Source: Acidimicrobiales bacterium
GTDB taxonomy: Bacteria; Actinomycetota; Acidimicrobiia; Acidimicrobiales; Iamiaceae
NCBI GenBank assembly: GCA_038241315.1
Contig: JBBRFU010000027.1
Location: 1 to 24,000 of the forward strand
Direction of reading: 5' to 3'
DNA length: 24,000 nucleotides
The notes under the pieces: generated by a model
Told to the model about the DNA's origin: nothing
The model's input: only the letters and a program-made list of their open reading frames with translations
Databases searched by the model: none
In this document: positions 4,836 to 19,338 of the stretch, one piece after another
Position numbering within the stretch: the first letter of the stretch is position 1
How the letters are laid out: each line of letters begins with the position of its first letter
Translations under genes and position numbers: made by a program

Positions 4836-5213
4836 TCACCGGAGGCGCTCGAGGGCCTGCGCCAGGGACTGCTGGGCAGCGGCCTCATCGACGCCGAGCT
4901 GTCGGGCGATCACGGCCAGCGCGTCGGCGGCCTGATGCAGATCGGTGAGGTCCGGCGTTCTCGCCCCCGTCGCCGGCCGGGCGCGCACGAACGTGCCCGC
5001 TCGACCGCGGCTCTCCACGACCCCGTCTGCCTCGAGCAGCTCGTAGGCCCGCTCGACCGTGCCCTTGGAGAGGCCGAGGTCCGAGGCAAGCTGGCGGATG
5101 GTGGGCAGCCGGGTGCCGGCGCCTGTTTGTCCGCTGACGGCCAGGCGCGCCACCTGGGCGCGGATCTGCTCGTAGACGGGCAGGGGCAGGGCGGGGTCGA
5201 CGCGGAGGAGCAC
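4836..5213 (-). CDS. GntR-family transcriptional regulator, short YtrA-like type (copy 1)
   Basis: Internal GTG at 5213..5211, 2 nt after the TGA of the upstream membrane-protein gene. The winged-HTH signature is PVYEQI...TRLPTIRQLASDLGLSKGTVERAYELLEADGVVESRGRAGTFV. Only ~45 residues follow the DNA-binding domain. A paralog lies at 11138..11542. Confidence 0.85.
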   Translation of the reverse strand: MLLRVDPALPLPVYEQIRAQVARLAVSGQTGAGTRLPTIRQLASDLGLSKGTVERAYELLEADGVVESRGRAGTFVRARPATGARTPDLTDLHQAADALAVIARQLGVDEAAAQQSLAQALERLR

Positions 5214-5215
5214 GG

Positions 5216-6211
5216 TCAGCCCGTTTCCCGGGCGAAGACCACCAGGGCCATCATCGCCAGGCACAGCCCGATCACCCCGAGCGCCCACCAGACCAGGTGC
5301 GAGCGGCGCCCACCGACCGCGTCGAGGTGGAGCGGGGTCAGCCCGAACGAGCGATTCGTCCACCACCAGATGCAGCCCGCGCAGAACAGGGCGATCGAGC
5401 CGAGCCAGGCGACCACCGAGACGACCTGCGTGGCTCGGGGCAGGTCGGGACCGGAAGCCACGACGGCAGACCACTGTGCCGAGATCGCCAGAGCGCCGAG
5501 TGTCACCATCGGCCGTGACGTGCCCGCCGACGTCGCCATGCGCCGCACCTCGTCGTCGGCCGCGGCGAGCGCTGCCGGCACCACCGGCCGAGGGCGCAGT
5601 GCGATGCGGCGGACGGCCCAGTGCCGCACCACCGCCAGCACGACGACGGCGATCCCGAGGGCGATCACGCGCGCGAGGTGCTCGCCCGTCACGGCCGACC
5701 CGACCACGCCCGCCGCCGCCAGGACCAGGAGCACCCGCTCCCGCCGATCGGCGCTCCGGTCGCGATACGCAGCGGGGTCCCGCACCTCGAGCGAAGCCGT
5801 GCGGGGACCCGGGTGCCGCACCCGGAACGCCTCGGCGAGGATCGAGCCGCCGATCGATCCAGCGAGGCCGATCGAGGCGAACAGAAGCAGGTTCAGCTCG
5901 ACCCCGCTCCGGCCGACGGCGTCGGCCGCCACCAGATAGGCCGACATGAGGATGAGGCCGACGATGGCCCCGGAGCGTCGGAATCGTTGCGAACGGTCGA
6001 TGAACCGGCCGACGAGCTGGTCACGCCCCGACGGCGTACCGGGCCCCGGGAACGCTGGGACAGGTCGACTCATGATCACGGCCACCAGCCCGATCCCGAA
6101 CACGGCAGCGACGAAGATGGCGATCAGGCGCACGGCGGATCGATCAGGGTCGACGTCAGCGTGGTGGCTGCGGGAGTGGTGTTGCTTGACTGTCCCATTG
6201 TCATAGGACAA
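5216..6211 (-). CDS. polytopic membrane protein of unknown family (copy 1), co-transcribed with the GntR regulator
   Basis: 331-aa ORF with multiple hydrophobic helices and high GC3. It is paralogous to 11539..12480 (shared TASLxxR...Y and LAADDxVR segments). The start is ambiguous: TTG 6211 lies inside the palindromic region, and the alternative is in-frame GTG 6133. Confidence 0.72.
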   Translation of the reverse strand: MSYDNGTVKQHHSRSHHADVDPDRSAVRLIAIFVAAVFGIGLVAVIMSRPVPAFPGPGTPSGRDQLVGRFIDRSQRFRRSGAIVGLILMSAYLVAADAVGRSGVELNLLLFASIGLAGSIGGSILAEAFRVRHPGPRTASLEVRDPAAYRDRSADRRERVLLVLAAAGVVGSAVTGEHLARVIALGIAVVVLAVVRHWAVRRIALRPRPVVPAALAAADDEVRRMATSAGTSRPMVTLGALAISAQWSAVVASGPDLPRATQVVSVVAWLGSIALFCAGCIWWWTNRSFGLTPLHLDAVGGRRSHLVWWALGVIGLCLAMMALVVFARETG

Positions 6212-6236
6212 TATGACAATGTGCCCTCGATCGCAA
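6186..6236. promoter_or_regulatory. AT-rich palindromic operator candidate overlapping divergent sigma70-like promoters (cassette 1)
   Basis: A perfect 9-bp inverted repeat, CATTGTCAT (6196..6204) / ATGACAATG (6213..6221), is separated by 8 bp. Plus strand: TTGACT (6186..6191), 17 nt, CAATAT (6209..6214), then GTG 6221. Minus strand: TTGCGA (6236..6231), 17 nt, TATTGT (6213..6208). The island stands out in GC-rich DNA. Confidence 0.5.
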
Positions 6237-6823
6237 CCCCCGATCCCTCTGTCGATGGTGCCCTCCTCGACGAGCTGGTGCCCCCGTCGGGGCCGAGATG
6301 GAGGCGGACGATCCTCTGGTTGGCCTTTCTGGGGCTGGTCGGCGCCTTCACCTGGGCGGTCACCACTGGGACCGCGATCCCGCAGGTCGATACCAACGTC
6401 CAGATGTGGGGCGGAGCCGGACCTGTCGGGATCACGTCATCCATCACCAACACCTCACCGGTCGCCATCGAGCTGGTCGGCGGGCCGCACCCGCGTCCCG
6501 GCCTCACCTCGCTCGGCTATACGACCGGCTCACTCACCACCGAGGACATGGTGCCGGTCAAGGCCCCCTCCGACCCGTTCCCGCTGCGCCTCGGCCCCAA
6601 CGAGAGCATCGACCTGACTGCGTGGTACCGCGTCGACGACTGCGACGCCGTGCTCGCCATCGTCCCCGGCGACGATCAGATAGACATTCAGGTCCGCATC
6701 GCCTCGGGCCCGGCGTCGTGGTTCACCGCCGAACGCTCGATCGATGCCCGCCCCCTGACAACGGCCACCGACGAGCCGACGTCCTGGCCTGCGGCCGTCG
6801 CCCGGTTCCCCTGCCCGAGCTGA
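6221..6823 (+). CDS. single-pass membrane protein with beta-rich extracytoplasmic domain, unknown family (copy 1)
   Basis: Last 200 codons of the 5621..6823 ORF, starting from GTG 6221. There is an N-terminal tail, one TM helix (ILWLAFLGLVGAFTWAV), then a beta-rich domain. It is paralogous to 10503..11141: shared L(L/V)DE-x5-GPR-x-R before the TM helix and PF-x20-C in the ectodomain. The upstream part of the ORF is antisense to the membrane-protein gene. Confidence 0.65.
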   Translation: MPSIATPDPSVDGALLDELVPPSGPRWRRTILWLAFLGLVGAFTWAVTTGTAIPQVDTNVQMWGGAGPVGITSSITNTSPVAIELVGGPHPRPGLTSLGYTTGSLTTEDMVPVKAPSDPFPLRLGPNESIDLTAWYRVDDCDAVLAIVPGDDQIDIQVRIASGPASWFTAERSIDARPLTTATDEPTSWPAAVARFPCPS

Positions 6824-6961
6824 CCTGGTCGCCCTCGACCCCTCGGTCATCGCGCGGGGGGACTCCACGGACGGCCTTCTGAGAAGCAGTCCGGAGCAAC
6901 GGTGATGGTGAGCTCGGACGAGGAGACCGGCACGTCAGGGGTACCGATCTACGCGGCTGCG

Positions 6962-7426
6962 CTACCAGTCGACCGCTTCCAGGTCTGTCGTCCACTGGAT
7001 GCCGGCCCACTCGCTGACGGCGTCGGTCGACCCCACCATCACCGCCGAGTGACGCTGCGACGCCGTGGGGATCTCGACCCGCCGAAGACCGTCCTCGGAA
7101 CGGCACGAACCGGTGGCCTCCGTGGCCGCGATGCAGACCGTCACCGCCGGCAGGGGTTGTCGGTCGGATGCGGTCTTGATGAAGTCGAGCGTGAGGTCGG
7201 ACGTCTGGCGATCGGTGCTGCCTCCAGCCGACAGGTAGCGCCAGCCCTTTGGCAGGGTCACCGGCGCGAGGGTCGTCGGCGCCTCGCGTCCCCACCCGTC
7301 CTGCACCGCACGCACCTGTGCCTCGAGCACCGCAGACGACGACTCGTCCGCAGGGTCGGAGCTGCACGCCGCGATCAGCACCAGCGCCGACGCCGCGCCT
7401 GCCCATCTCGTCCGCCGGCTCGCCAT
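6962..7426 (-). CDS. putative lipoprotein, function unknown
   Basis: Internal ATG at 7426..7424 with AGGA ~9 nt upstream. The signal MASRRTRWAGAASALVLIAAC carries the classical lipobox LIAAC. 154 aa. The longer 227-aa ORF prefix is P/R-rich and implausible. Confidence 0.7.
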   Translation of the reverse strand: MASRRTRWAGAASALVLIAACSSDPADESSSAVLEAQVRAVQDGWGREAPTTLAPVTLPKGWRYLSAGGSTDRQTSDLTLDFIKTASDRQPLPAVTVCIAATEATGSCRSEDGLRRVEIPTASQRHSAVMVGSTDAVSEWAGIQWTTDLEAVDW

Positions 7427-7536
7427 CCGCACATCCTGCCGCGTTCCAGAGGGTCCGGGACGCTTCCGGAGCGAGAGGAAGATCGGGCCGCGGGGAAGTG
7501 CCGCAGGGGCGCCCCCACGTCGCACCTCTCCCGGCG

Positions 7537-8706
7537 TCAGGGGGCGCCGCCGGTGGGTGGGTCGGTGCGGCCGGGGCGTTGGCGGTTGTGGGTGGGGCAG
7601 AGGAGGCGGCCGTTGTCTTGGCTGGTGGGGCCGCCGTCGGTCCATTCGATGATGTGGTCGACGTGGCAGTGCTCGGCGGGGACGCGGCAGCCGGGGTGGG
7701 TGCAGTGGCGGTCGCGGAGCTCGATGGCTCGGCGAAGGGCGCCGGTGAAGCAGCGTTGCTCGGAGACGTCGATGACCCTCGACGGGGTGTCGAACACGAC
7801 GCGTTCGATGTCGGCCTCGTCGAGGACCGAGGCGACCTGGCCGGGGGTGAGGACGGTGCCGTCGGCGAGCTCGCAGACGCGTCCTTTGAAGGTCTCGTAA
7901 CCGACGAGGACCGAGAGCAGGACCCGGCCCTTGCGGGCGTCGGGGGGCATGGCGGCGGAGCGGCGGGCCATCTCGACCATGGCCGCGGCGCGACGTCGCT
8001 CGGCGCTGCGGGCCAGGTCCGACGCGGTGGCGGCGTCGCCGAGCCGTTCACGAGCCTCGGCCCAGTCGGCTCGGAACAGCTCCTGTTCGAGGCGGAGCAG
8101 CTCGTTGCGGTAGATGGCGCCGCCGACGGTGTCGAGCAGGGCGCGGACGTCGACCCGGTCGCCGAGGGTGGTCACGGCTCTCGCGAAGCACTTCCCGTCC
8201 TTGCGGCGGGCCCGGTCCTCGCTGGCCTGGTCGTCAGCGGCGTTGGTCCACTGCTTGACGATCCGGGCGAAGTCGTCGTGGTGGAGCTGTCGGCCCGACT
8301 CGACGAGGTGCGCCTCGCCCTCGGCGAAGGCGGCCTCGTTCGGGGGCCGGTTCGCCCGGCACAGGGCGTCGACGGCGTCGATCGAGAGCTCCCCGGCCTC
8401 GAACGCCGCTCGGGTGAGGGGCATGGTGCGCAGCCTGCGGGCCCGGCGCACCTCGGCGCCGGCCCGCTCGGGCGCGCACCGTGCCTCGCGGGCCAGGCGC
8501 GCCGCGCCGGAGCGGGAACGGTCCTGGGCCCACACCGTGCGGGCATCCCACACCGACACGAACCGGGCCCGGGCCGCGGCGAGGCGAGCCTCGAGGCGGG
8601 CCATCTCGACCACGACCTCGTGCAGCGAGGCGTCGTCGAGGTCGCCCGGCTCGGTGGCCAGCAGTGCGTCGATCGCCGCCGCGACCTGCATCTCCATGCC
8701 TTCCAT
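7537..8706 (-). CDS. DUF222-domain HNH endonuclease (13E12-repeat-like family)
   Basis: ATG at 8706 (MEGMEMQVAAAIDAL...). The N-terminal DUF222-like helical region is followed by a C-terminal HNH motif, HCTHPGC...HCHVDHIIEW...GPT...N...LCPTHN. Only the last 389 codons of the 818-aa track ORF look coding. Confidence 0.9.
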   Translation of the reverse strand: MEGMEMQVAAAIDALLATEPGDLDDASLHEVVVEMARLEARLAAARARFVSVWDARTVWAQDRSRSGAARLAREARCAPERAGAEVRRARRLRTMPLTRAAFEAGELSIDAVDALCRANRPPNEAAFAEGEAHLVESGRQLHHDDFARIVKQWTNAADDQASEDRARRKDGKCFARAVTTLGDRVDVRALLDTVGGAIYRNELLRLEQELFRADWAEARERLGDAATASDLARSAERRRAAAMVEMARRSAAMPPDARKGRVLLSVLVGYETFKGRVCELADGTVLTPGQVASVLDEADIERVVFDTPSRVIDVSEQRCFTGALRRAIELRDRHCTHPGCRVPAEHCHVDHIIEWTDGGPTSQDNGRLLCPTHNRQRPGRTDPPTGGAP

Positions 8707-8874
8707 CGTACACCAGTTCGATCCGAGATGCGACGAAGAAGTAGCGGACGCCGTCCGCCCGTTCGGCTCCCGATGCCCCCAGTCCGCCGGAGTCGCCGCC
8801 TGGCCTCGTGACCGACGGGTGCTCGGCCGGCCGAGCCGCCCCACCAGCGTCGCGCTCGTCGGAGACCTCCGCTC

Positions 8875-9126: not shown

Positions 9127-9720
9127 GTGCAGGTCACGGTCAGTCGTCGCCACACGGAGGTCTCCGAGAGTCTGCGGGTCATGGCCGAGGAGAAGATCGG
9201 GCGGCTCGCCCGCTTCGTCGACGGCCTGGACCACGCAGAGGTCCACTTCTCGGAGCACAAGAACCCGCGCATCGCCGACAAGGAGGTGTGCGAGGTCACG
9301 ATCGAGGGCCACGGTCACCACGTGCGGTGCAAGGTCCAGGCCCCCGACGGGTTCCAGGCGGTCGACAAGGCCTACGACAAGCTGGAGCACCAGCTCCACA
9401 AGCTCAAGACGAAGCTGCGCCAGCGCTACCAGGGGGCGCCGAAGGCCAAGAAGGGCGTCGACAGCCTCGGCGCCGTGGTGGCCCCGCCCGAGGTGACGCC
9501 CGAGGTGGCGGTCGACGACGAGTCGCTCGACGCCGGCGGGCCCCAGATCGTGAAGTCGAAGCGCTTCGCCATGTTCCCGATGAGCGCCGAGGAGGCGGTG
9601 GAGCGCATGGAGCTCATCGGCCACGGCTTCTTCTTCTTCACCCACATCGAGACCTCTCGTGCCGCGGTCGTGTACCGCCGCGACGACGGCCAGGTCGGCC
9701 TCATCGACGAAGCCGACTGA
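9127..9720 (+). CDS. hpf: ribosome hibernation promoting factor, long form
   Basis: GTG 9127 lies 9 nt after a perfect AGGAGG (9112..9117). The N-terminal S30AE/RaiA domain begins VQVTVSRRHTEVSESLR. The C-terminal dimerisation domain is KSKRFAMFPMSAEEAVERMELIGHGFFFF...VVYRRDDGQVGLI. Confidence 0.92.
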   Translation: MQVTVSRRHTEVSESLRVMAEEKIGRLARFVDGLDHAEVHFSEHKNPRIADKEVCEVTIEGHGHHVRCKVQAPDGFQAVDKAYDKLEHQLHKLKTKLRQRYQGAPKAKKGVDSLGAVVAPPEVTPEVAVDDESLDAGGPQIVKSKRFAMFPMSAEEAVERMELIGHGFFFFTHIETSRAAVVYRRDDGQVGLIDEAD

Positions 9721-9727
9721 CGCGTCG

Positions 9728-10423
9728 TTGCCTCCCCCCAGCGACGTCCCCCCGAGGGGCGCCGTCCTCCGGGTGCTCGTCTGCGACGACCACGTGGTGT
9801 TCCGGCGTGGGCTCGGCCTCGTGCTCGAGGCCGAGCCGGACGTGGAGGTGGTGGGGGAGGCGGCCGACACCGCGGCCGCGATCGCGGCGGCAGCGTCGCT
9901 CCGTCCCGACGTGGTGCTGATGGACCTCCGGATGCCCGGCGGCGGCGGCCTCGAGGCCACCCGCCGCATCTGCGCCGACCGGCCGGAGACCAAGGTCGTC
10001 GTGTTGACGGTGAGCGACGACGACGAGGACCTCTTCGAGGCGGTGAAAGCCGGTGCGGTCGGCTACCTCCTCAAGGAGGTGTCGATCGAGGGCGTCGGCG
10101 ACGCGGTCCGCACCGTGGCCGCCGGCGAGAGCCTGCTGTCGCCGGCCATGACCGCCAAGCTCCTCGGGGGCTACGCCGCGCTGGCCAACCAGGCGGGCGG
10201 TCGGCGCGCCGGCGGCGCGATCGGCGCCCTCACCGAGCGCGAGCACCAGACGCTGCTCGGCCTGGCTCGCGGCCTCTCGAACCGGGCCATCGCCGCCGAG
10301 CTCGGCATCGCCGAGAACACCGTGAAGAACCACGTCCGCGGCGTGCTCGAGAAGCTCAAGGTCTCCAGCCGCACCGAGGCCGCCCTCTACGCCGTGCGCG
10401 AGGGCCTCACCGGCGAGGGCTGA
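9728..10423 (+). CDS. NarL/LuxR-family response regulator (no cognate kinase in window)
   Basis: The receiver domain has CDDH, the phospho-acceptor context VVLMDLRMPG, LTVS and GYLLK. The C-terminal LuxR HTH is LTEREHQTLLGLARGLSNRAIAAELGIAENTVKNHV. TTG 9728 was chosen so that beta-1 (LRVLVCDD) is included. GTG 9773 and GTG 9659 are alternatives. Confidence 0.88.
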   Translation: MPPPSDVPPRGAVLRVLVCDDHVVFRRGLGLVLEAEPDVEVVGEAADTAAAIAAAASLRPDVVLMDLRMPGGGGLEATRRICADRPETKVVVLTVSDDDEDLFEAVKAGAVGYLLKEVSIEGVGDAVRTVAAGESLLSPAMTAKLLGGYAALANQAGGRRAGGAIGALTEREHQTLLGLARGLSNRAIAAELGIAENTVKNHVRGVLEKLKVSSRTEAALYAVREGLTGEG

Positions 10424-10502
10424 CGACGCCGACGGGCCCCGCCGGCGCCGTCTCGGCCGGCCTCGCACCGTCTCGTGCCGGGCGCCCGTGGCGACGGGGT
10501 CC

Positions 10503-11141
10503 TCAGCAGTCGCTCTGGTCCAGGGCGAGATCGAGGGTCCGGGAGCGCCCGAGCGGGCCCTCGATCTCCAGGTGCAGCGTGCCGGGTGGGCTCGTGCAGG
10601 GGGTTCGGTGGAACACCAGCACCCGCTGGGACGCCTGGGGGTCGATGTCGACCGGGCGGAACGGGCGCAGCCCCGGCCCCGGCGCCCCGACGTCGTCGGC
10701 CCCGGCCGGGGCCCCGAGCGACCACAGGGGGCCCGACTCGGCGGTGGAGACGGCCAGGAAGAACCCCACGACCGGCTCCGCTCCGTCGTCGGGGGCGCCA
10801 GCGGTGAACGAGGCGTCGGTGAGCTCGAAGGTCGTCATCCCCTTGTTGTGGAGCTCGACCTCCAGGAAGGATCGGATGACCGTGGTCTCGCCGGTCTCGC
10901 CGGTCTCGCCGGTCTCGCCGGTGTCGCCGGTCTCGCCGGTCTCGCCGGGGAGCGAGCCCGAGCCGCCCACGCCCGAGGTGACCTCGACCCAGGGGTTGAC
11001 GGCGCCGGACACGCGGAGTGCGGTCAGGACGACGAGCACCGCCACGATGACCCCGACGAAGCGGGCGACCGGGTGCCGCGAGCGGGGGCCGAGCCGAGCC
11101 AGGGGCTCGTCGACGAGGGTGTCGCTGGGGGATGGGCTCAC
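10503..11141 (-). CDS. single-pass membrane protein with (GET)n linker and beta-rich ectodomain, unknown family (copy 2)
   Basis: GTG 11141 overlaps the TGA of the upstream GntR gene (GTGA). TM helix FVGVIVAVLVVLTAL, then a G-X-T repeat linker, then a beta-rich Cys-containing domain. Paralog of 6221..6823. Confidence 0.75.
   Translation of the reverse strand: MSPSPSDTLVDEPLARLGPRSRHPVARFVGVIVAVLVVLTALRVSGAVNPWVEVTSGVGGSGSLPGETGETGDTGETGETGETGETTVIRSFLEVELHNKGMTTFELTDASFTAGAPDDGAEPVVGFFLAVSTAESGPLWSLGAPAGADDVGAPGPGLRPFRPVDIDPQASQRVLVFHRTPCTSPPGTLHLEIEGPLGRSRTLDLALDQSDC
10884..10946. repeat. 9-bp tandem repeat GGTCTCGCC x7 (one GGTGTCGCC variant), in-frame, encoding GETGETGDTGETGETGETGET
   Basis: Seven contiguous copies read directly at 10884, 10893, 10902, 10911, 10920 (variant), 10929 and 10938. 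Confidence 0.95.
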
Positions 11142-11542
11142 GAGGACCTCCGGGTGCGGTCGATGTCGGGGTCGAGGGCGGCGAAGGCGGCGCGCACGGC
11201 GGCGACGGCGTCGTCGACCGTGAGGCCGCGGTGGGCGGCCTCCACCGCGAACGCGCTCGCCGTCGAACCGAGGTCGGCCGCGGCGGTCGCCCGGTCGGGC
11301 TCGTGACCCTCGGCCACGAACGTGCCGTGGCGGCCGCGGCTGGTCACCAGGCCCTCGAGCTCGAGCTCCCGGTAGGCCCGGGCCACGGTGTTGACCGCGA
11401 TGCCGAGGTCGTTGGCGAGGTGGCGGATGGTGGGCAGACGGGTGCCGGTGGCCAGCACCCCGCTGCGGACCATGGTGGCGAGCTGCTGTTGGATCTGGGC
11501 GTACGGCGGCGTGGCCGAGTGGGGGTCGACCCGGATGATCAC
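11138..11542 (-). CDS. GntR-family transcriptional regulator, short YtrA-like type (copy 2)
   Basis: GTG 11542 overlaps the TGA of the upstream membrane-protein gene (GTGA). The HTH is PPYAQI...TRLPTIRHLANDLGIAVNTVARAYRELELEGLVTSRGRHGTFV, followed by a short C-terminal tail. 134 aa. Confidence 0.85.
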   Translation of the reverse strand: MIIRVDPHSATPPYAQIQQQLATMVRSGVLATGTRLPTIRHLANDLGIAVNTVARAYRELELEGLVTSRGRHGTFVAEGHEPDRATAAADLGSTASAFAVEAAHRGLTVDDAVAAVRAAFAALDPDIDRTRRSS

Positions 11543-12456
11543 GTCGGCACCGGGTCGGGTGGCCGGTCGGCGAGATCGGACCGGCGCACCCGCCAGGCCC
11601 GGTAGGCGAAGGAGCGCCAGGAGAACAGGGCCAGGACCAGGAACGTGATCGGGAGGACCGAGAAGGCGCCGGGCACGTCGATCCAGGGCACCTCGATCAC
11701 CGCGGCGTGGTTGGCGAGGCCGAGGGTGCAGATCATGGCGGTCCCGGCCCCGGCCACCTGGTGGATGGCGCTCGTCCGTACGGCGTCGTCGGCGGCGAGC
11801 AGATCCGGTTCCAGCACCGCCTGGCGGCGACCGACGATGCGCTGCTCGGCCAGGGCGACGGCTGCGGCCACCAGCGCAGCGGCCAGCACGCGGCCACCGA
11901 GCGACGTCCACGACGGGAGGGGGAAGGTGTCCGGCGCCTCCGCGTGGGTGAGGGCCCGCATCGCGATCGTCGACCCCGCCATCAGCCCGAGCGCGCCGGC
12001 CGGCGCCCACCGGAGCCCGACCGGCAGGTAGTCGGCGAGGCGTCGGGGCGTGAGCGAGGCCGTCGCCGGCGCCGCAGGGGAGGGGGCCACCTGGTGCTGG
12101 GCCCAGAGCGCCCCGACCGCCCAGCCGCCGATCACCCAGGTCCACCACCCGGCGCCCGACGAGGTGTCGACGCCGAAGGCGCGGTCGACGACGTAGCCCA
12201 GGTACATGGCGCCGACGGCTCCGATGCCCCGACAGGTGATGGCGAGCGACACGTAGTAGCGGACGAGCGGGCGGGTCCGGGCCGTCAACCGCACGCCGTG
12301 CGACCGGGCCCAGGAGGTCACCTCGGCCGGCCGGTCGGCCCGGCGGGTGAGGAACGACACGAGCGCGAACGTCAGCAGCGCCCCCCACACCCCGATGCCG
12401 AGGAGCGCCCCGATCGGGTACCCCGCCACCTCACTGCTCGTCCCGATCGCCAGCAC
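11539..12456 (-). CDS. polytopic membrane protein of unknown family (copy 2)
   Basis: Multiple TM helices and high GC3. Paralog of 5216..6211. GTG 12456 is preferred because GGAGG (12469..12465) lies 8 nt upstream. ATG 12480 and the track start at 12522 are alternatives lying inside or beyond the palindrome. Confidence 0.72.
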   Translation of the reverse strand: MLAIGTSSEVAGYPIGALLGIGVWGALLTFALVSFLTRRADRPAEVTSWARSHGVRLTARTRPLVRYYVSLAITCRGIGAVGAMYLGYVVDRAFGVDTSSGAGWWTWVIGGWAVGALWAQHQVAPSPAAPATASLTPRRLADYLPVGLRWAPAGALGLMAGSTIAMRALTHAEAPDTFPLPSWTSLGGRVLAAALVAAAVALAEQRIVGRRQAVLEPDLLAADDAVRTSAIHQVAGAGTAMICTLGLANHAAVIEVPWIDVPGAFSVLPITFLVLALFSWRSFAYRAWRVRRSDLADRPPDPVPT

Positions 12457-12475
12457 CGACGCCGCCTCCCCACCG

Positions 12476-12505
12476 CTCATTGTGTCAATGCATTGATACA
12501 ATGAG
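12476..12505. promoter_or_regulatory. 30-bp near-perfect AT-rich palindrome (candidate GntR operator) containing divergent extended -10 elements (cassette 2 / secA upstream)
   Basis: CTCATTGTGTCAATG | CATTGATACAATGAG, with 14 of 15 arm positions complementary. Internally it reads as two CATTG-N3-CAATG units. TGATACAAT (12494..12502) faces secA on the plus strand. TGACACAAT (12487..12479) faces the membrane-protein operon on the minus strand. Confidence 0.55.
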
Positions 12506-12611
12506 ACAACGACACGCGTCAAGGGCCGAGCGTGGTGCTCGGGCGATCGTCCTGGCGCCCCGTCCGGGCCGACGACCGTTGGGGGGCGGGGGACCTACAC
12601 TCGCGAACCTC

Positions 12612-15329
<2,718 letters not shown>

Positions 15330-15760: not shown

Positions 15761-17587
15761 TCAGGTCCGCCGGCGGCCGTCGGCCAGTCGGATCACCACG
15801 TCGGCCCGCTCCAGCACGCGCGGCCGGTGGCTGACGGCGAGGACGGTGAGGTCGCCGTCGGCGGCGGTGAAGAGCCCGTCCCACAGGCGGGTCTCGGTGG
15901 CCACGTCGAGCGCGCTCGAGAGGTCGTCGACCACGAGCAGCTCGGGCTCTCGGACGAAGGCGCGCGCCGCCGCCGCCCGCTGGATCTGGCCGCCGGAGAG
16001 CCGCACGCCCTTCGGGCCCACCATGGTCCGCCGCCCGTCGGGCAGGTCGTCGAGGTCGTCGTCGAGGCAGGCCAGCGTGAAGGCGCGGGCGAGGCCGGCC
16101 GGGTCCACCCCGAGCAGGACCGTGTCGGCGAGGGTCTCGGAGAACAGGCGGGGCACCTGGGGCACGTAGGCCACCCGGGGCGGCACGAGCACGGTGGACG
16201 GGTCGTCCACCTCCTCGTCGTTCCAGAGGATCGACCCGCCGGCCCGGGGCACCAGGCCGAGCACGGCTCGCAGCAGCACCGACTTGCCGGCGCCCACCGG
16301 CCCGGTGACCACCACGAGCTGGCCGCGACGCACGTCGAGGTCGACGCCCGCCACCTGATCGCCCTCGTCGAGGTGGACGCGCAGGCCGCGCACCGCCAGC
16401 CGCTCGAGGCGGACGGGCGCCGAGCGGCGGGTGCGGGGCTCGACGACGTCGTGGACGTAGGCCGGCGGGCCGTGGCGGAGGTGGGTGGTGACAGGGGCCG
16501 AGGCGCGATCGGCGTCGTGGTCGGCGATCAGGCGGCCGAGGCGGGCGGCCGACACCTCGGCCTGGCGCTGCCACGCCGACCACCGGGCCGTGATCCGGGG
16601 GAGCCCGGCCACGACGGTGGCGTAGGTGGTGAACAGGCCGATGTCGCCCACGCTGAGGTCGCCCCGGCGCAGGGCCGGCGCCGCCAGGAGGAGGGCCAGG
16701 CCCAGCCCGGCGTTGGCGGTGATGCCGCCGAGGACCTGGGACACCTGGGTGCCCACCTGGTCCCGCCGGGCATGGGCAGCGCGCACCCGGCCCAGCTCCT
16801 GGAAGCGGCCCAGCACGGCGGGCTCGGCGGCGGCCACCTTCACCGCCCCGATGGCGCCGAAGGCATCGCCGATGAAGCCGGTGACCCCGGCCGTGGCCTG
16901 GCGCTCGGCCATCCGCCATCGCCGCAGGCGGGAGGCGAGGACCTGGCCGATCCACAGCACCACGACCACCGGGAGGGCCATGGCGACCGCGGCCGGCGGC
17001 GAGATGAACGCCAGGACGGCGAGCCCGCCCAACGAGCCCAGGGTGGCGGCCACCAGGTCGAGCCAGACGTCGAGCACCTGGGCGATGTCGCGCGCGTCGT
17101 CGCGGAAGCGGCTGACGGCCTCGCCCGGCGAGCCGGGGAGGCGGTCGGTGACGGGGCCCGGGTCCTGGGCGAGGGAGCGCAGCACGTTGACCCGCGGGAC
17201 GGTGTGCCAGAACACGAAGGCGCCGTGCCACTGGATGATGGCCGGGAGGAGGACGAGCCAGCGGCCGACCTCGAGCCCGGCGAGCACGGCCACCACCGTC
17301 CAGATCCCCGACCCGTCGCCGGGCGGCAGGCGGTCGAGGACGCTGCGCAGCACCAACCCCGTGGCGAGGGGGAGGCAGAAGAACAGGCACCACATGGCCA
17401 CCGAGATGAGCCAGGCCTGCCGGTCGGCCCGCAGGATCCGCCACGCGAAGCGGAAGCTGCTCGCGGTCTCCGGGGCGGTGGCCGGGGCGGCGGTGCGGGC
17501 ACCGTTGGTCGGGGCGCCGGTGGTCCGCGCACCGGTGTCGGACGCGTCGGACGTCGCGGTCGGGGTGGCGGGGGTCGTCGAGGTCAC
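15761..17587 (-). CDS. ABC exporter, fused permease/ATPase subunit (degenerate Walker B half)
   Basis: Six-helix TMD plus NBD. Walker A is GPVGAGKS and the signature is LSGGQ. Walker B is LLVVDD followed by L, so Asp replaces the catalytic Glu. The H-loop is SHR. GTG 17587 overlaps the upstream stop (GTGA). There is a T/A/P-rich N-terminal extension. Confidence 0.92.
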   Translation of the reverse strand: MTSTTPATPTATSDASDTGARTTGAPTNGARTAAPATAPETASSFRFAWRILRADRQAWLISVAMWCLFFCLPLATGLVLRSVLDRLPPGDGSGIWTVVAVLAGLEVGRWLVLLPAIIQWHGAFVFWHTVPRVNVLRSLAQDPGPVTDRLPGSPGEAVSRFRDDARDIAQVLDVWLDLVAATLGSLGGLAVLAFISPPAAVAMALPVVVVLWIGQVLASRLRRWRMAERQATAGVTGFIGDAFGAIGAVKVAAAEPAVLGRFQELGRVRAAHARRDQVGTQVSQVLGGITANAGLGLALLLAAPALRRGDLSVGDIGLFTTYATVVAGLPRITARWSAWQRQAEVSAARLGRLIADHDADRASAPVTTHLRHGPPAYVHDVVEPRTRRSAPVRLERLAVRGLRVHLDEGDQVAGVDLDVRRGQLVVVTGPVGAGKSVLLRAVLGLVPRAGGSILWNDEEVDDPSTVLVPPRVAYVPQVPRLFSETLADTVLLGVDPAGLARAFTLACLDDDLDDLPDGRRTMVGPKGVRLSGGQIQRAAAARAFVREPELLVVDDLSSALDVATETRLWDGLFTAADGDLTVLAVSHRPRVLERADVVIRLADGRRRT

Positions 17588-19338
17588 GTCGTCACCTCGT
17601 CGACGGCCCGCCCGGCGGCGAGGAGGCCGTGGAACCGCGACGACGGGTCGGCGGCGAGCAGGGCGCGGTCCCGGTGCTCGACCACGCGCCCGTGGTCGAT
17701 CACGCAGATGTGGTCGACCCGGTCGAGGGTGGCCAGGCGGTGGGCGATGATGATCGCGGTCCGGCCGGCGAGGAGCCGGTCGGTGGCGACGGCCAGCCGG
17801 GCCTCGGTGGCGGGGTCGAGGCGGCTCGACGCCTCGTCGAGGATGACGACCGCCGGGTCGGCGAGCAGCACCCGCGCGAACGCGAGCAGCTGGCCCTCGC
17901 CGGCCGAGAGGTCGCCGTCGCCGTCGAGGTGCTCGTCCAGGCCGTCGGGCAGGGAGCGCAGCCAGCGCCCGAGGCCCACGTCGGCGACCACCTCCCGGAG
18001 CCGGTCGTCGTCGGCGCGCAGGGTGCCGAAGATGGTGAGGTTGTCGCGCAGCGACGCCCGGAACAGCTCGACCTCCTGGGTGACGATCCCGATCCGGCGG
18101 CGGAGGTCGGCCACCCGGAGCGTCCGGACGTCGCTACCGCCCACCAGCACCCGGCCGTCCTCGGTGTCCCACAGGCGGGCCACCAGCCGGCCGATGGTGG
18201 TCTTGCCCGACCCGGTCCGGCCCACGATGCCGAGCGTGGTGCCGGCGGGGACGAGCAGGTCGACGTCGTCGAGCACGGCGTGGCCGGTCCCGTAGCCGAA
18301 CGTGACCCCGCGCAGCTCCACCGTGAGCGGGCCCGGGGGCAGGTCGGCGCCGTCGCCGTCGGTGATGCGGGGCGAGGTGGCGAGCAACCGGGCGGCGCGG
18401 CTGGTGCCGGCCACCGCCTTCTGGGCCTCGGCGAGCTGCTCGGCCACGCGCCAGAGCGGGTCGCTCACCAGTTGGGAGAAGCGGAGCAGGGTGAGCACCG
18501 AGCCGACCGAGAGCTCGCCGCGCCGGCTGAGCCACACGCCCAGGGCCAAGGTGGCCACGCTGCCCGCCGCGAACACGGCCCCGGCGAGCGAGATGGAGCC
18601 GTCGCCGCGTGCGGCGGCCCGCCGCGCCGTCCGCCACCAGCCGGCCGAGTGCTGCTGGAGGCGGTGCTCGGCCCACCGCCCGGCGCCGTTGGCCCGGAGG
18701 TCCTCGAGCCCGCCGAGGCGCTCCTCCACGTCGCCGTAGAGCCGGCCCTGCACCTCGCGCTCCTCGTCGTAGAAGGGCACCGCCACACGGCGGAGGTGGA
18801 CCATGACCACGATCGCGGCCGCCACGGTGAGGGCGATGAGCGCGCTGGCCCGCCAGTCGATCAGGGCCGAGACCACGAGGACGCCGACCACCAAGATGGC
18901 GTTGCCCGCCAGTTGCAGGACGGCGGTCGACGAGAACCGGGTGACCGCATCGATGTCGCCGTCGATGCGCTCGATGAGCTGGCCGGGGCTGTGGTCGCCG
19001 TGCCAGTCGAGGTCGAGGGAGAGGGCATGGGCGCAGAGGTCGCTGCGCAGGTTGTTGCCGACCCGCCACGCCAGCCGGACCGAGAGCCAGGTGACCACCA
19101 GCTGGAGGCCGTCGCCGGTGAGCGTGGTCAGGAGGAAGGCGAGGGCGAGGCCGGCCAGGGCGGCGGAGGTGCCGCCGTCGAGGGCGGTGTCGACGAAGCG
19201 CCCCACGAGCACCGGTCCGGCCAGGGGCAGGACCATGGCCACGACGAGGATGCCCAGGAGCGCGAGGAGCTGGCGGCGCTCGGGGCGCAGGTAGGTCGCC
19301 AGGAGGCGGACGTCGGCGGGGGAGTCGGGGTGGGCCAT
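17584..19338 (-). CDS. ABC exporter, fused permease/ATPase subunit (canonical Walker B, degenerate signature)
   Basis: ATG 19338. TMD plus NBD, with Walker A GRTGSGKT, Q-loop VTQE, non-canonical signature LSAGEGQ, Walker B VVILDE and H-loop AHR. Confidence 0.92.
   Translation of the reverse strand: MAHPDSPADVRLLATYLRPERRQLLALLGILVVAMVLPLAGPVLVGRFVDTALDGGTSAALAGLALAFLLTTLTGDGLQLVVTWLSVRLAWRVGNNLRSDLCAHALSLDLDWHGDHSPGQLIERIDGDIDAVTRFSSTAVLQLAGNAILVVGVLVVSALIDWRASALIALTVAAAIVVMVHLRRVAVPFYDEEREVQGRLYGDVEERLGGLEDLRANGAGRWAEHRLQQHSAGWWRTARRAAARGDGSISLAGAVFAAGSVATLALGVWLSRRGELSVGSVLTLLRFSQLVSDPLWRVAEQLAEAQKAVAGTSRAARLLATSPRITDGDGADLPPGPLTVELRGVTFGYGTGHAVLDDVDLLVPAGTTLGIVGRTGSGKTTIGRLVARLWDTEDGRVLVGGSDVRTLRVADLRRRIGIVTQEVELFRASLRDNLTIFGTLRADDDRLREVVADVGLGRWLRSLPDGLDEHLDGDGDLSAGEGQLLAFARVLLADPAVVILDEASSRLDPATEARLAVATDRLLAGRTAIIIAHRLATLDRVDHICVIDHGRVVEHRDRALLAADPSSRFHGLLAAGRAVDEVTT

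Follow-up and report, generated by a model that had tools for sequence, protein, structure and literature searches.

A conserved gene module of a YtrA-type GntR regulator and two membrane proteins in an Acidimicrobiales genome

The window analysed here is a 24,000-nucleotide (nt) stretch of the genome of an Acidimicrobiales bacterium (assembly GCA_038241315.1, contig JBBRFU010000027.1, positions 1 to 24,000). On its minus strand three real genes follow one another: M2, encoding a polytopic membrane protein, G2, encoding a GntR-family regulator, and S2, encoding a single-pass membrane protein. Their junctions, translation signals and counterparts in other genomes support the view that M2-G2-S2 is one operon with coupled translation. 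A second set of related genes (M1, G1 and S1, here called copy 1, M2-G2-S2 being copy 2) lies in the same window. The families are called M, G and S, and gene orders are written as in M>G>S. As an explanation of the whole we favour an autorepressed YtrA-type operon in which a membrane complex of M and S would be both the product of the operon and the signal partner of G; we give this explanation an even chance.

Three gene families and their linkage

The initial annotation had placed the genes for the membrane protein, the GntR regulator and the single-pass protein in this order on the minus strand, joined by two 4-nt GTGA overlaps. Direct reading of the open reading frames gave the same coordinates and exactly the same two overlaps:

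11539..12456, minus strand: M2, polytopic membrane protein of 305 amino acids (aa), member of an uncharacterised family (open reading frame; third-position GC 0.93; AlphaFold2 (AF2) model)
11138..11542, minus strand: G2, predicted YtrA-type GntR repressor of 134 aa (PF00392; exact product present in an NCBI-derived collection)
10503..11141, minus strand: S2, single-pass membrane protein of 212 aa (third-position GC 0.95; S-family hidden Markov model (HMM), E=4e-36)
12465..12471, minus strand: GGGGAGG, Shine-Dalgarno sequence of M2, 8 nt before GTG 12456 (sequence)

M2 runs from GTG 12456 to the TGA at 11541..11539, G2 from GTG 11542 to the TGA at 11140..11138, and S2 from GTG 11141 to the TGA at 10505..10503. 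The GTG starts of G2 and S2 thus overlap the preceding stops within the tetranucleotides at 11542..11539 and 11141..11138. The GC content of the window is 73%, that of the third codon positions of the three frames 0.93-0.95, and the frame plot changes phase exactly at both junctions. Homologues were found for all three products. M2 (P0001) and G2 are identical to products of an NCBI record. Two further possible starts of M2, ATG 12480 and TTG 12522, lie inside the putative operator and the -35-like hexamer described below, which makes GTG 12456 the likely start; the NCBI product and the N termini of homologues agree with it. The exact S2 product was not found in a 15-billion-protein collection that does contain M2, G2, G1 and S1 of the same NCBI contig. 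The source record may lack an annotation of S2 or give it another start.

According to an exhaustive profile search of a 1.84-billion-protein library, M is a sizeable, unnamed family, with 1538 clusters at E<=1e-3 and 320 at E<=1e-30. Neither M2 nor M1 matched Pfam, NCBIfam, PADLOC or PDB sequences, and a Pfam search with 26 family members at E<=0.1 gave nothing beyond single chance hits. The AF2 model of M2 (pLDDT 89, pTM 0.86) contains seven long helices. Foldseek comparison of this model, limited to the PDB, gave a best E value of 1.4 and TM-scores below 0.3. M2 is predicted to have seven transmembrane helices, with the N terminus outside and the C terminus inside. In this topology the strongly conserved motifs (WARxHGLxLTxxNRP, ASLxPRxLADYLP, RPQPxxxPxLVAADDAIRxxxxH and RAWRVRR) would all be on the cytoplasmic side, and the outer loops are variable. 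Some members (P0078 and P0087; L047 2000..3085) are longer at the N terminus by about 60 aa, which include two additional hydrophobic helices, and belong to G>M>S operons in which both junctions are 4-nt overlaps.

S2 consists of a short cytoplasmic HPVARF motif, one transmembrane helix, a (GET)7 stalk and a β-rich ectodomain with two conserved cysteines. Across the family the N-terminal motif reads HPV(R/A)RF, and the alignment has six invariant columns (P, G, N, C, G and C), one Asn and two Cys of which are the invariant residues of the β-rich domain. The AF2 model of S1 (pLDDT 76) has a transmembrane helix at residues 26-49 and a β-sandwich, for which Foldseek found only generic immunoglobulin-like (Ig-like) matches at E>=1.8e-3. 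Pfam gave no match for S. A PCuAC copper chaperone and a pilin or archaellin were considered for S and rejected, since only borderline generic Ig-like matches were seen and the metal and signal motifs are absent. The stalk, between the transmembrane helix and the ectodomain of S2, is absent from the homologues in the alignment. It is encoded by the following repeat, which could change length in frame by slippage:

10884..10948, no strand assigned: 9-bp tandem repeat GGTCTCGCC, 7.2 copies with 96% matches, encoding the (GET)n stalk of S2

A word-indexed homology search recovered no protein with S2 as query, and missed the query as well, probably because the search was swamped by the GETGET repeat.

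M and S also occur in one protein. Three such fusions were found (P0106, P0133 and P0097, 566-666 aa). The S HMM matches residues about 353-525 of P0106 and P0133 (E=1e-13 to 1e-11) and only its first half matches P0097 (about 373-447, E about 1e-7). A GntR gene precedes the genes for P0106 and P0133 with a 4-nt overlap.

L046 603..2573: M-S fusion locus, M and S in one protein

Such a fusion is topologically consistent, because the C terminus of M and the N terminus of S are both predicted to be cytoplasmic. In the long fusion forms, and likewise in the S-like proteins from L016, L021 and L047, another extracytoplasmic domain follows at the C terminus. It is labelled Mtb12_C in precomputed Pfam hits, a label that a separate Pfam scan did not recover.

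The linkage of the genes was followed in a scan of one genome per species, seeded on the motif AADDA[IV]R, which under-samples distant members. It gave 38 GTDB loci; further loci came from metagenome contigs, and several loci contain frameshifts. Most loci of the scan are from metagenome-assembled genomes of Acidimicrobiales (Microthrixaceae, Iamiaceae/Aquihabitans), others from Solirubrobacterales/Thermoleophilia, Candidatus Dormibacteraeota, Streptosporangium and Planotetraspora; this motif-based scan yielded no locus from Streptomyces. The arrangements are as follows:

M>G>S: 17 loci and copy 2 of the window
S divergent from M>G: Streptosporangium L035; L041; L042 (with L043 and L044 from other samples); L045; copy 1 of the window
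G>M>S: L016, L019, L021 and L047
M>S>G: L034
M>G without a detectable S inside 6 kb: 16 loci, most of them from Solirubrobacterales/Thermoleophilia and Dormibacteraeota

M adjoins a YtrA-type GntR gene in every locus with an intact flank, GTDB loci and metagenome contigs alike. The initial annotation had argued that linkage of the three genes is selected rather than accidental, and that homologues occurring without each other would speak against this. The first part is supported by the loci compared: each architecture is kept in several unrelated contexts, further gene orders exist, and M and S are fused in some proteins. On the second, M and G are never apart, as the argument expects, and S is missing from 16 M>G loci, which it does not. 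As 16 loci retain M>G alone, M and G would form the obligatory core and S a lineage-specific third partner, always linked to M and G in the loci where it is present. The ABC (ATP-binding cassette) gene pair and the LuxR response regulator gene found near copy 2 are not conserved beside the module in other loci and were ruled out as parts of it.

The regulator, its operators and a proposed circuit

The GntR winged helix-turn-helix (HTH) model PF00392 matches G2 with 61.6 bits (E=5.5e-17) and G1 with 53.8 bits (cut-off 27). The HTH domain ends near residue 78 in both proteins (134 and 125 aa), leaving a tail of 47-56 aa; YtrA proteins are about 120-130 aa long, with a C-terminal domain reduced to about 50 aa. 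The closest solved relatives of G2 are the small YtrA-type proteins 4HAM, 6SBS, 3BY6 and 3NEU. The second best of them, 6SBS, has the molecule name 'Regulatory protein', and we take it to be YtrASa since the sequence fits. The best NCBIfam model for both regulators is NF053730 (Rv1152 family, equivalog), with 108.8 bits for G2 and 85.3 for G1; both scores are below its curated cut-off of 170, which places them outside that family. An ABC transporter partner, typical of YtrA operons and not obligatory, is missing: the partners are M and S, and there is no ABC_tran hit. The GntR winged HTH, the length and a long palindrome upstream of the own operon, predicted to be bound by G, are features of the YtrA subfamily, and by these sequence features G2 and G1 are YtrA-type GntR regulators. 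Such regulators have no effector domain, and no ligand has been identified for any of them (PMC6746942).

Putative operator and promoter elements were found upstream of both copies:

12478..12503, no strand assigned: putative operator 2, palindrome CATTGT-N14-ACAATG, on the minus strand CATTGTATCAATGCATTGACACAATG, conserved upstream of M in nearly all loci
12502..12509, no strand assigned: extra direct half-site TTGTCTCA beside operator 2 (sequence)
12517..12522, minus strand: TTGACG, putative -35-like hexamer 7 nt upstream of operator 2; TTGAC is conserved in the closest loci
6196..6221, no strand assigned: putative operator 1, CATTGTCATA-N6-TATGACAATG, in the 87-bp divergent M1/S1 intergenic region, abutting the S1 start codon
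6186..6191, plus strand: TTGACT, putative -35-like hexamer for S1, 17 nt before CAATAT

The pattern CATTGT-N14-ACAATG has exactly two matches in the 24-kb window, compared to 0.01 expected. The only two 30-nt stretches with a GC content of 40% or less, 6185..6214 and 12472..12501, are the two operator/promoter regions. The copy-2 site as a whole reads TTGACG-N7-TTGTCTCA-TTGTATCA-ATGCAT-TGACACAA, i.e. a palindrome with an extra direct half-site. The closest loci have the same layout upstream of M (TTGAC-N7-8-TTGTnTCATTGTAnnAnTnnnTTGAnACAAAGGAG-N5-8-ATG/GTG). Other clades have related palindromes such as TTGCAATGTAnC...ATTGATACAAT, and the operator of the G>M>S loci reads CATTGTCTCAATG-N8-CATTGAGACAATG. 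An operator upstream of M is kept in Acidimicrobiia, Solirubrobacterales/Thermoleophilia, Dormibacteraeota and Streptosporangiaceae. In known YtrA motifs GT and AC lie far from the centre (PMC4494728), and the operator of YtrASa has flanking extra half-sites (PMC6746942); both features are also seen here.

There are four operator types, each accompanied by a distinct HTH signature in G:

W2-type loci: IRHLAxDLGxAxNTV
group with TTGCAATGTA...GATACAAT: IRQLAxDLGLAGGTVA
G>M>S loci: ATNTVQ
copy-1 type: SKGTVE

Because the operator type co-varies with the recognition region of G, this correspondence is the best indirect evidence that G binds these sites, and it points to mutual insulation of the two copies in the window. 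In L001, L010-L015, L018, L020, L023-L030 and L039 the right operator half TACAAT stands 7-9 nt before the M start without a Shine-Dalgarno sequence, so that the M mRNA of those loci is probably leaderless. The clade of the window has instead TTGAC further upstream and an AAGGAG leader. Operator 2 lies in the divergent intergenic region 12457..12611 that copy 2 has in common with secA, about 109 bp from the secA start (about 12612); secA is not a conserved neighbour of the module in other loci.

In the circuit that we propose, a single promoter upstream of M2 would drive M2-G2-S2 as one transcript. A G2 dimer would bind CATTGT-N14-ACAATG and the adjacent direct half-site, which overlap the promoter, and shut off its own operon. 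Ribosomes finishing M2 would re-initiate on the overlapping GTG of G2, and S2 would be started behind its own GGAGG. Translation across the overlaps would keep the ratio of the three products constant and place the synthesis of G beside the membrane. The seven-helix M and S, with its one helix and extracytoplasmic Ig-like domain, would form a membrane complex, and this complex would tell G when to leave the DNA via the conserved cytoplasmic face of M. We regard autorepression by G as very probable, and an M-S complex as likely. The role of M-S as signal input to G is proposed more tentatively, at rather below an even chance. It is suggested by the lack of an effector domain and of a known ligand in YtrA proteins, by the cytoplasmic conservation of M, by the constant association of M and G, and by the synthesis of G from the M message at the membrane. 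A bolder version, which we think unlikely, sees in M and S the missing sensory input of the effector-less YtrA regulators and a novel transmembrane signalling device: S would be an extracytoplasmic Ig-like co-receptor and M a seven-helix transducer of novel fold, whose cytoplasmic face would hold or release G, delivered directly to it by re-initiation.

The main alternative, which we find quite possible but clearly short of probable, makes G an ordinary local repressor that senses a signal of its own (a small molecule, a peptide or a modification) and M and S its regulated output. M would be a transporter or an envelope-maintenance device and S an extracytoplasmic accessory, the two replacing the ABC transporter, and the overlaps would only ensure co-expression. 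A polytopic protein with a single-pass Ig-like accessory and a local repressor resembles MmpL/MmpS plus repressor, which favours this view. PmtR, a YtrA relative, is thought to bind peptide ligands directly, and a partner protein is then not strictly required. This view is moreover the default for YtrA operons, as most YtrA regulons comprise only one operon with a transporter (PMC4494728, PMC6746942). Further observations weigh against our own explanation. The gene order is free, and as G leads in the G>M>S loci, its translation cannot depend on M everywhere. Among the best 150 members of the M family, none was found fused to G. S is absent from 16 M>G loci and hence dispensable for the role of M and G. 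The topology of M is derived from the positive-inside rule and the AF2 helices, and the consensus scan called no sigma-70-type promoter, the -35 and -10 elements being assigned by eye. However, no similarity of M to a transporter or a solved fold could be detected, its invariant polar residues are all predicted to be cytoplasmic with variable loops outside, and the absence of a Shine-Dalgarno sequence at the M>G junction is conserved. The absence of an effector domain in G and of any known YtrA ligand (PMC6746942) also speaks against M and S being mere output.

The autorepressed operon proposed here can be compared with several known systems. In BlaR1-BlaI and MecR1-MecI, a membrane sensor gene is followed by a winged-helix repressor gene in one autoregulated operon, with a palindromic operator overlapping the promoter, and the repressor is under the control of the membrane protein. 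BlaR1 has zinc-protease and penicillin-binding sensor domains, and BlaI is not a GntR protein. The likeness lies in the membrane gene coming first, the repressor gene directly after it and a palindrome at the promoter. M showed none of the marks of BlaR1/MecR1 (Peptidase_M56, HEXXH, penicillin-binding domain) in Pfam, PDB or Foldseek comparisons. A BlaR1-like protease was ruled out for M, which has no protease motif or domain. MmpS-MmpL systems with a local repressor likewise join a polytopic protein, a small single-pass β-sandwich partner and an adjacent dedicated repressor. MmpL is a 12-helix RND (resistance-nodulation-division) protein and MmpS belongs to PF05423, whereas M has seven predicted helices and neither M nor S has a Pfam hit. 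No sequence or Foldseek similarity was found of M to RND proteins or of S to MmpS, and the repressor family differs. PADLOC defence models include no family for M2, M1, S2 or S1 and gave only weak generic HTH matches for G2. By the Pfam, PDB/Foldseek and PADLOC results, the module was ruled out as a BlaR1/BlaI, an MmpS/MmpL or a known defence system.

YtrA of Bacillus subtilis is a small GntR protein that autorepresses ytrGABCDEF, in which the small membrane-protein gene ytrG precedes the repressor gene (PMC12772383, PMC6746942). Induction of this operon is tied to the cell envelope and the lipid II cycle, and its inducing signal and ligand are not known (PMC12772383, PMC6746942). The module shares with it a YtrA repressor with a preceding membrane-protein gene and, as proposed, autorepression. 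The ytr operon encodes ABC transporter subunits, whereas the operon described here has none; its M protein has seven helices and no relative in Pfam, NCBIfam or PDB, and its third gene encodes a single-pass Ig-like protein. YtrASa of Sulfolobus acidocaldarius, a regulator with a membrane-protein operon, has a very small regulon, and its semi-palindromic operator with flanking direct half-sites covers the transcription start (PMC6746942). That system is archaeal, with the regulator gene first, no S-type gene and a core motif of 14 bp compared to 26-30 bp here. Rv1152 of Mycobacterium tuberculosis and MSMEG_5174 of M. smegmatis are YtrA-type regulators with a link to vancomycin tolerance (PMC4923875). 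The genes beside Rv1152 encode a deacetylase and an O-methyltransferase and no membrane protein (PMC4923875), whereas here the partners are M and S. According to the summary in PMC6746942, a subgroup of actinomycete YtrA-like regulators is encoded in operons with membrane proteins, not ABC transporters (Tsypik et al. 2016). The same association of a YtrA-like gene with a membrane-protein gene is found in the window and in more than 40 loci, and the module may belong to this subgroup; that summary does not mention a three-gene set, M-S fusions or an operator.

The association of YtrA regulators with membrane proteins is thus already known in general. As far as checked, the M family, the S family, the M-S fusion, the four gene orders, the operator types and the M>G junction without a Shine-Dalgarno sequence are undescribed. 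YtrA-type GntR regulators are abundant in Actinobacteria and Firmicutes and respond to cell-envelope stress. The module provides a concrete and well-conserved candidate partner for such a regulator, in the form of a family of about 1,500 clusters never apart from GntR in the loci examined. With its candidate operators and two seemingly insulated paralogous copies in one genome, it makes the control of a YtrA regulator directly testable. Should M and S be mere cargo, a defined and presumably autoregulated envelope module would still remain, with a wide occurrence in Acidimicrobiia, Thermoleophilia and Dormibacteraeota.

Translation across the gene overlaps

To assess translation signals, the 18 nt upstream of each start were paired with the anti-Shine-Dalgarno sequence; the background of this test is -3.5 +/- 2.6 kcal/mol. 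At the M>G junction, pairing was -3.0 kcal/mol in the window and -4.1 on average in the family, not above background. At the G>S junction the values were -10.2 and -7.5 kcal/mol, respectively, and a Shine-Dalgarno sequence is evident:

11147..11151, minus strand: GGAGG, Shine-Dalgarno sequence of S2, inside the 3' end of G2

As G has no Shine-Dalgarno sequence of its own, it is probably translated by ribosomes terminating on M, and we consider re-initiation coupling of G to M somewhat more probable than not. The claim of the initial annotation that the overlaps imply one operon with coupled translation is supported by these signals, by the conserved overlaps and by scans of the gene group itself. 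Consensus scans found no terminator-like or promoter-like site within 10300..12700, and no AT-rich island lies inside M2, G2 or S2. Downstream of S2 the RNA folds no better than shuffled sequences (z=-0.8) and no terminator was identified there; Rfam gave no match.

The overlaps might instead be incidental, a by-product of tight packing in a high-GC genome, with the three genes possibly translated independently. In favour of this view, 4-nt overlaps are the commonest overlap class in prokaryotes, one of them (17584..17587) also joins the ABC genes of the window, and S2 has a strong Shine-Dalgarno sequence of its own. In a genome of 73% GC, GTGA overlaps are individually common, but recurrence of the same junction over loci is more than chance. 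At the M stop, 37 of 42 loci have GTGA or ATGA, irrespective of the following gene, and the G>S junction is RTGA in 13 of the 15 intact colinear loci, the remaining two having a 1-nt overlap. These overlaps are kept across loci with only about 30% protein identity, and G is without a Shine-Dalgarno sequence in most loci. We therefore judge incidental compaction improbable.

The second copy and its neighbourhood

The initial annotation had described copy 1 as having its single-pass gene divergent from the membrane-protein/GntR pair. This holds, with S1 on the plus strand and M1 and G1 on the minus strand:

5216..6133, minus strand: M1, about 305 aa from GTG 6133, distantly paralogous to M2 (profile comparison)
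4836..5213, minus strand: G1, 125-aa paralogue of G2, its start following the M1 stop by 2 nt; exact product in the collection
6221..6823, plus strand: S1 (P0028), divergent single-pass paralogue of S2, 200 aa (profile-profile comparison)

Homologues of M1 are called at 308 aa. G1 and G2 share 50% identity (E=5e-28). M1 and M2 gave no significant match in BLASTP, and their kinship appeared only with profiles: M1 matches the M profile in hhalign with 96% probability (E=4e-9) and in hmmsearch with E=6e-11, and a jackhmmer search started from M1 recovers the whole M family. For S, profiles of the S1 and S2 types align over 149 colinear columns (95.3% probability, E=2.2e-8), and all six invariant columns are kept in S1. 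On these comparisons the two copies are the same three families at the level of distant paralogues, and the further claim that these families occur here in two architectures is upheld. That copy 1 is only an analogue, its divergent gene being unrelated to S2 and the two architectures a coincidence of neighbouring membrane genes, is very improbable: S1 and S2 are not significantly matched by BLASTP (E=0.07) or connected by hmmsearch or jackhmmer, and a single sequence against a profile reaches only 76% probability, but the profile-profile match with its six invariant columns, a clear S member divergent from M>G in Streptosporangium (L035, E=1e-13) and the divergent arrangement with an invariant common operator in L041, L042 and L045 all stand against it.

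Among YtrA regulons, divergently oriented regulated pairs are reported to be very rare (PMC4494728). In L041, L042, L044 and L045 a 40-bp block that takes in operator 1, TTGACT-N17-CAATAT-N6-start, is nearly invariant, with two variable positions, between flanks that have diverged. The flanking genes differ among the loci in which S is divergent from M>G. As CAATAT ends 6 nt before the start codon, the S1 mRNA is probably leaderless.

Between copy 1 and hpf lies a gene for a DUF222/HNH endonuclease (7537..8850, minus strand), preceded by a region without a clear coding frame (6850..7530); a LuxR-type response regulator gene is found at 9659..10423. It thus seems that the two modules, the HNH gene and the LuxR-type response regulator gene break up the usual actinobacterial comF-hpf-secA neighbourhood. 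The ABC transporter genes at 15761..17587 and 17584..19338 (minus strand) form a separate unit beyond secA (15761..19338), and 4-nt overlaps such as theirs are common in this genome.

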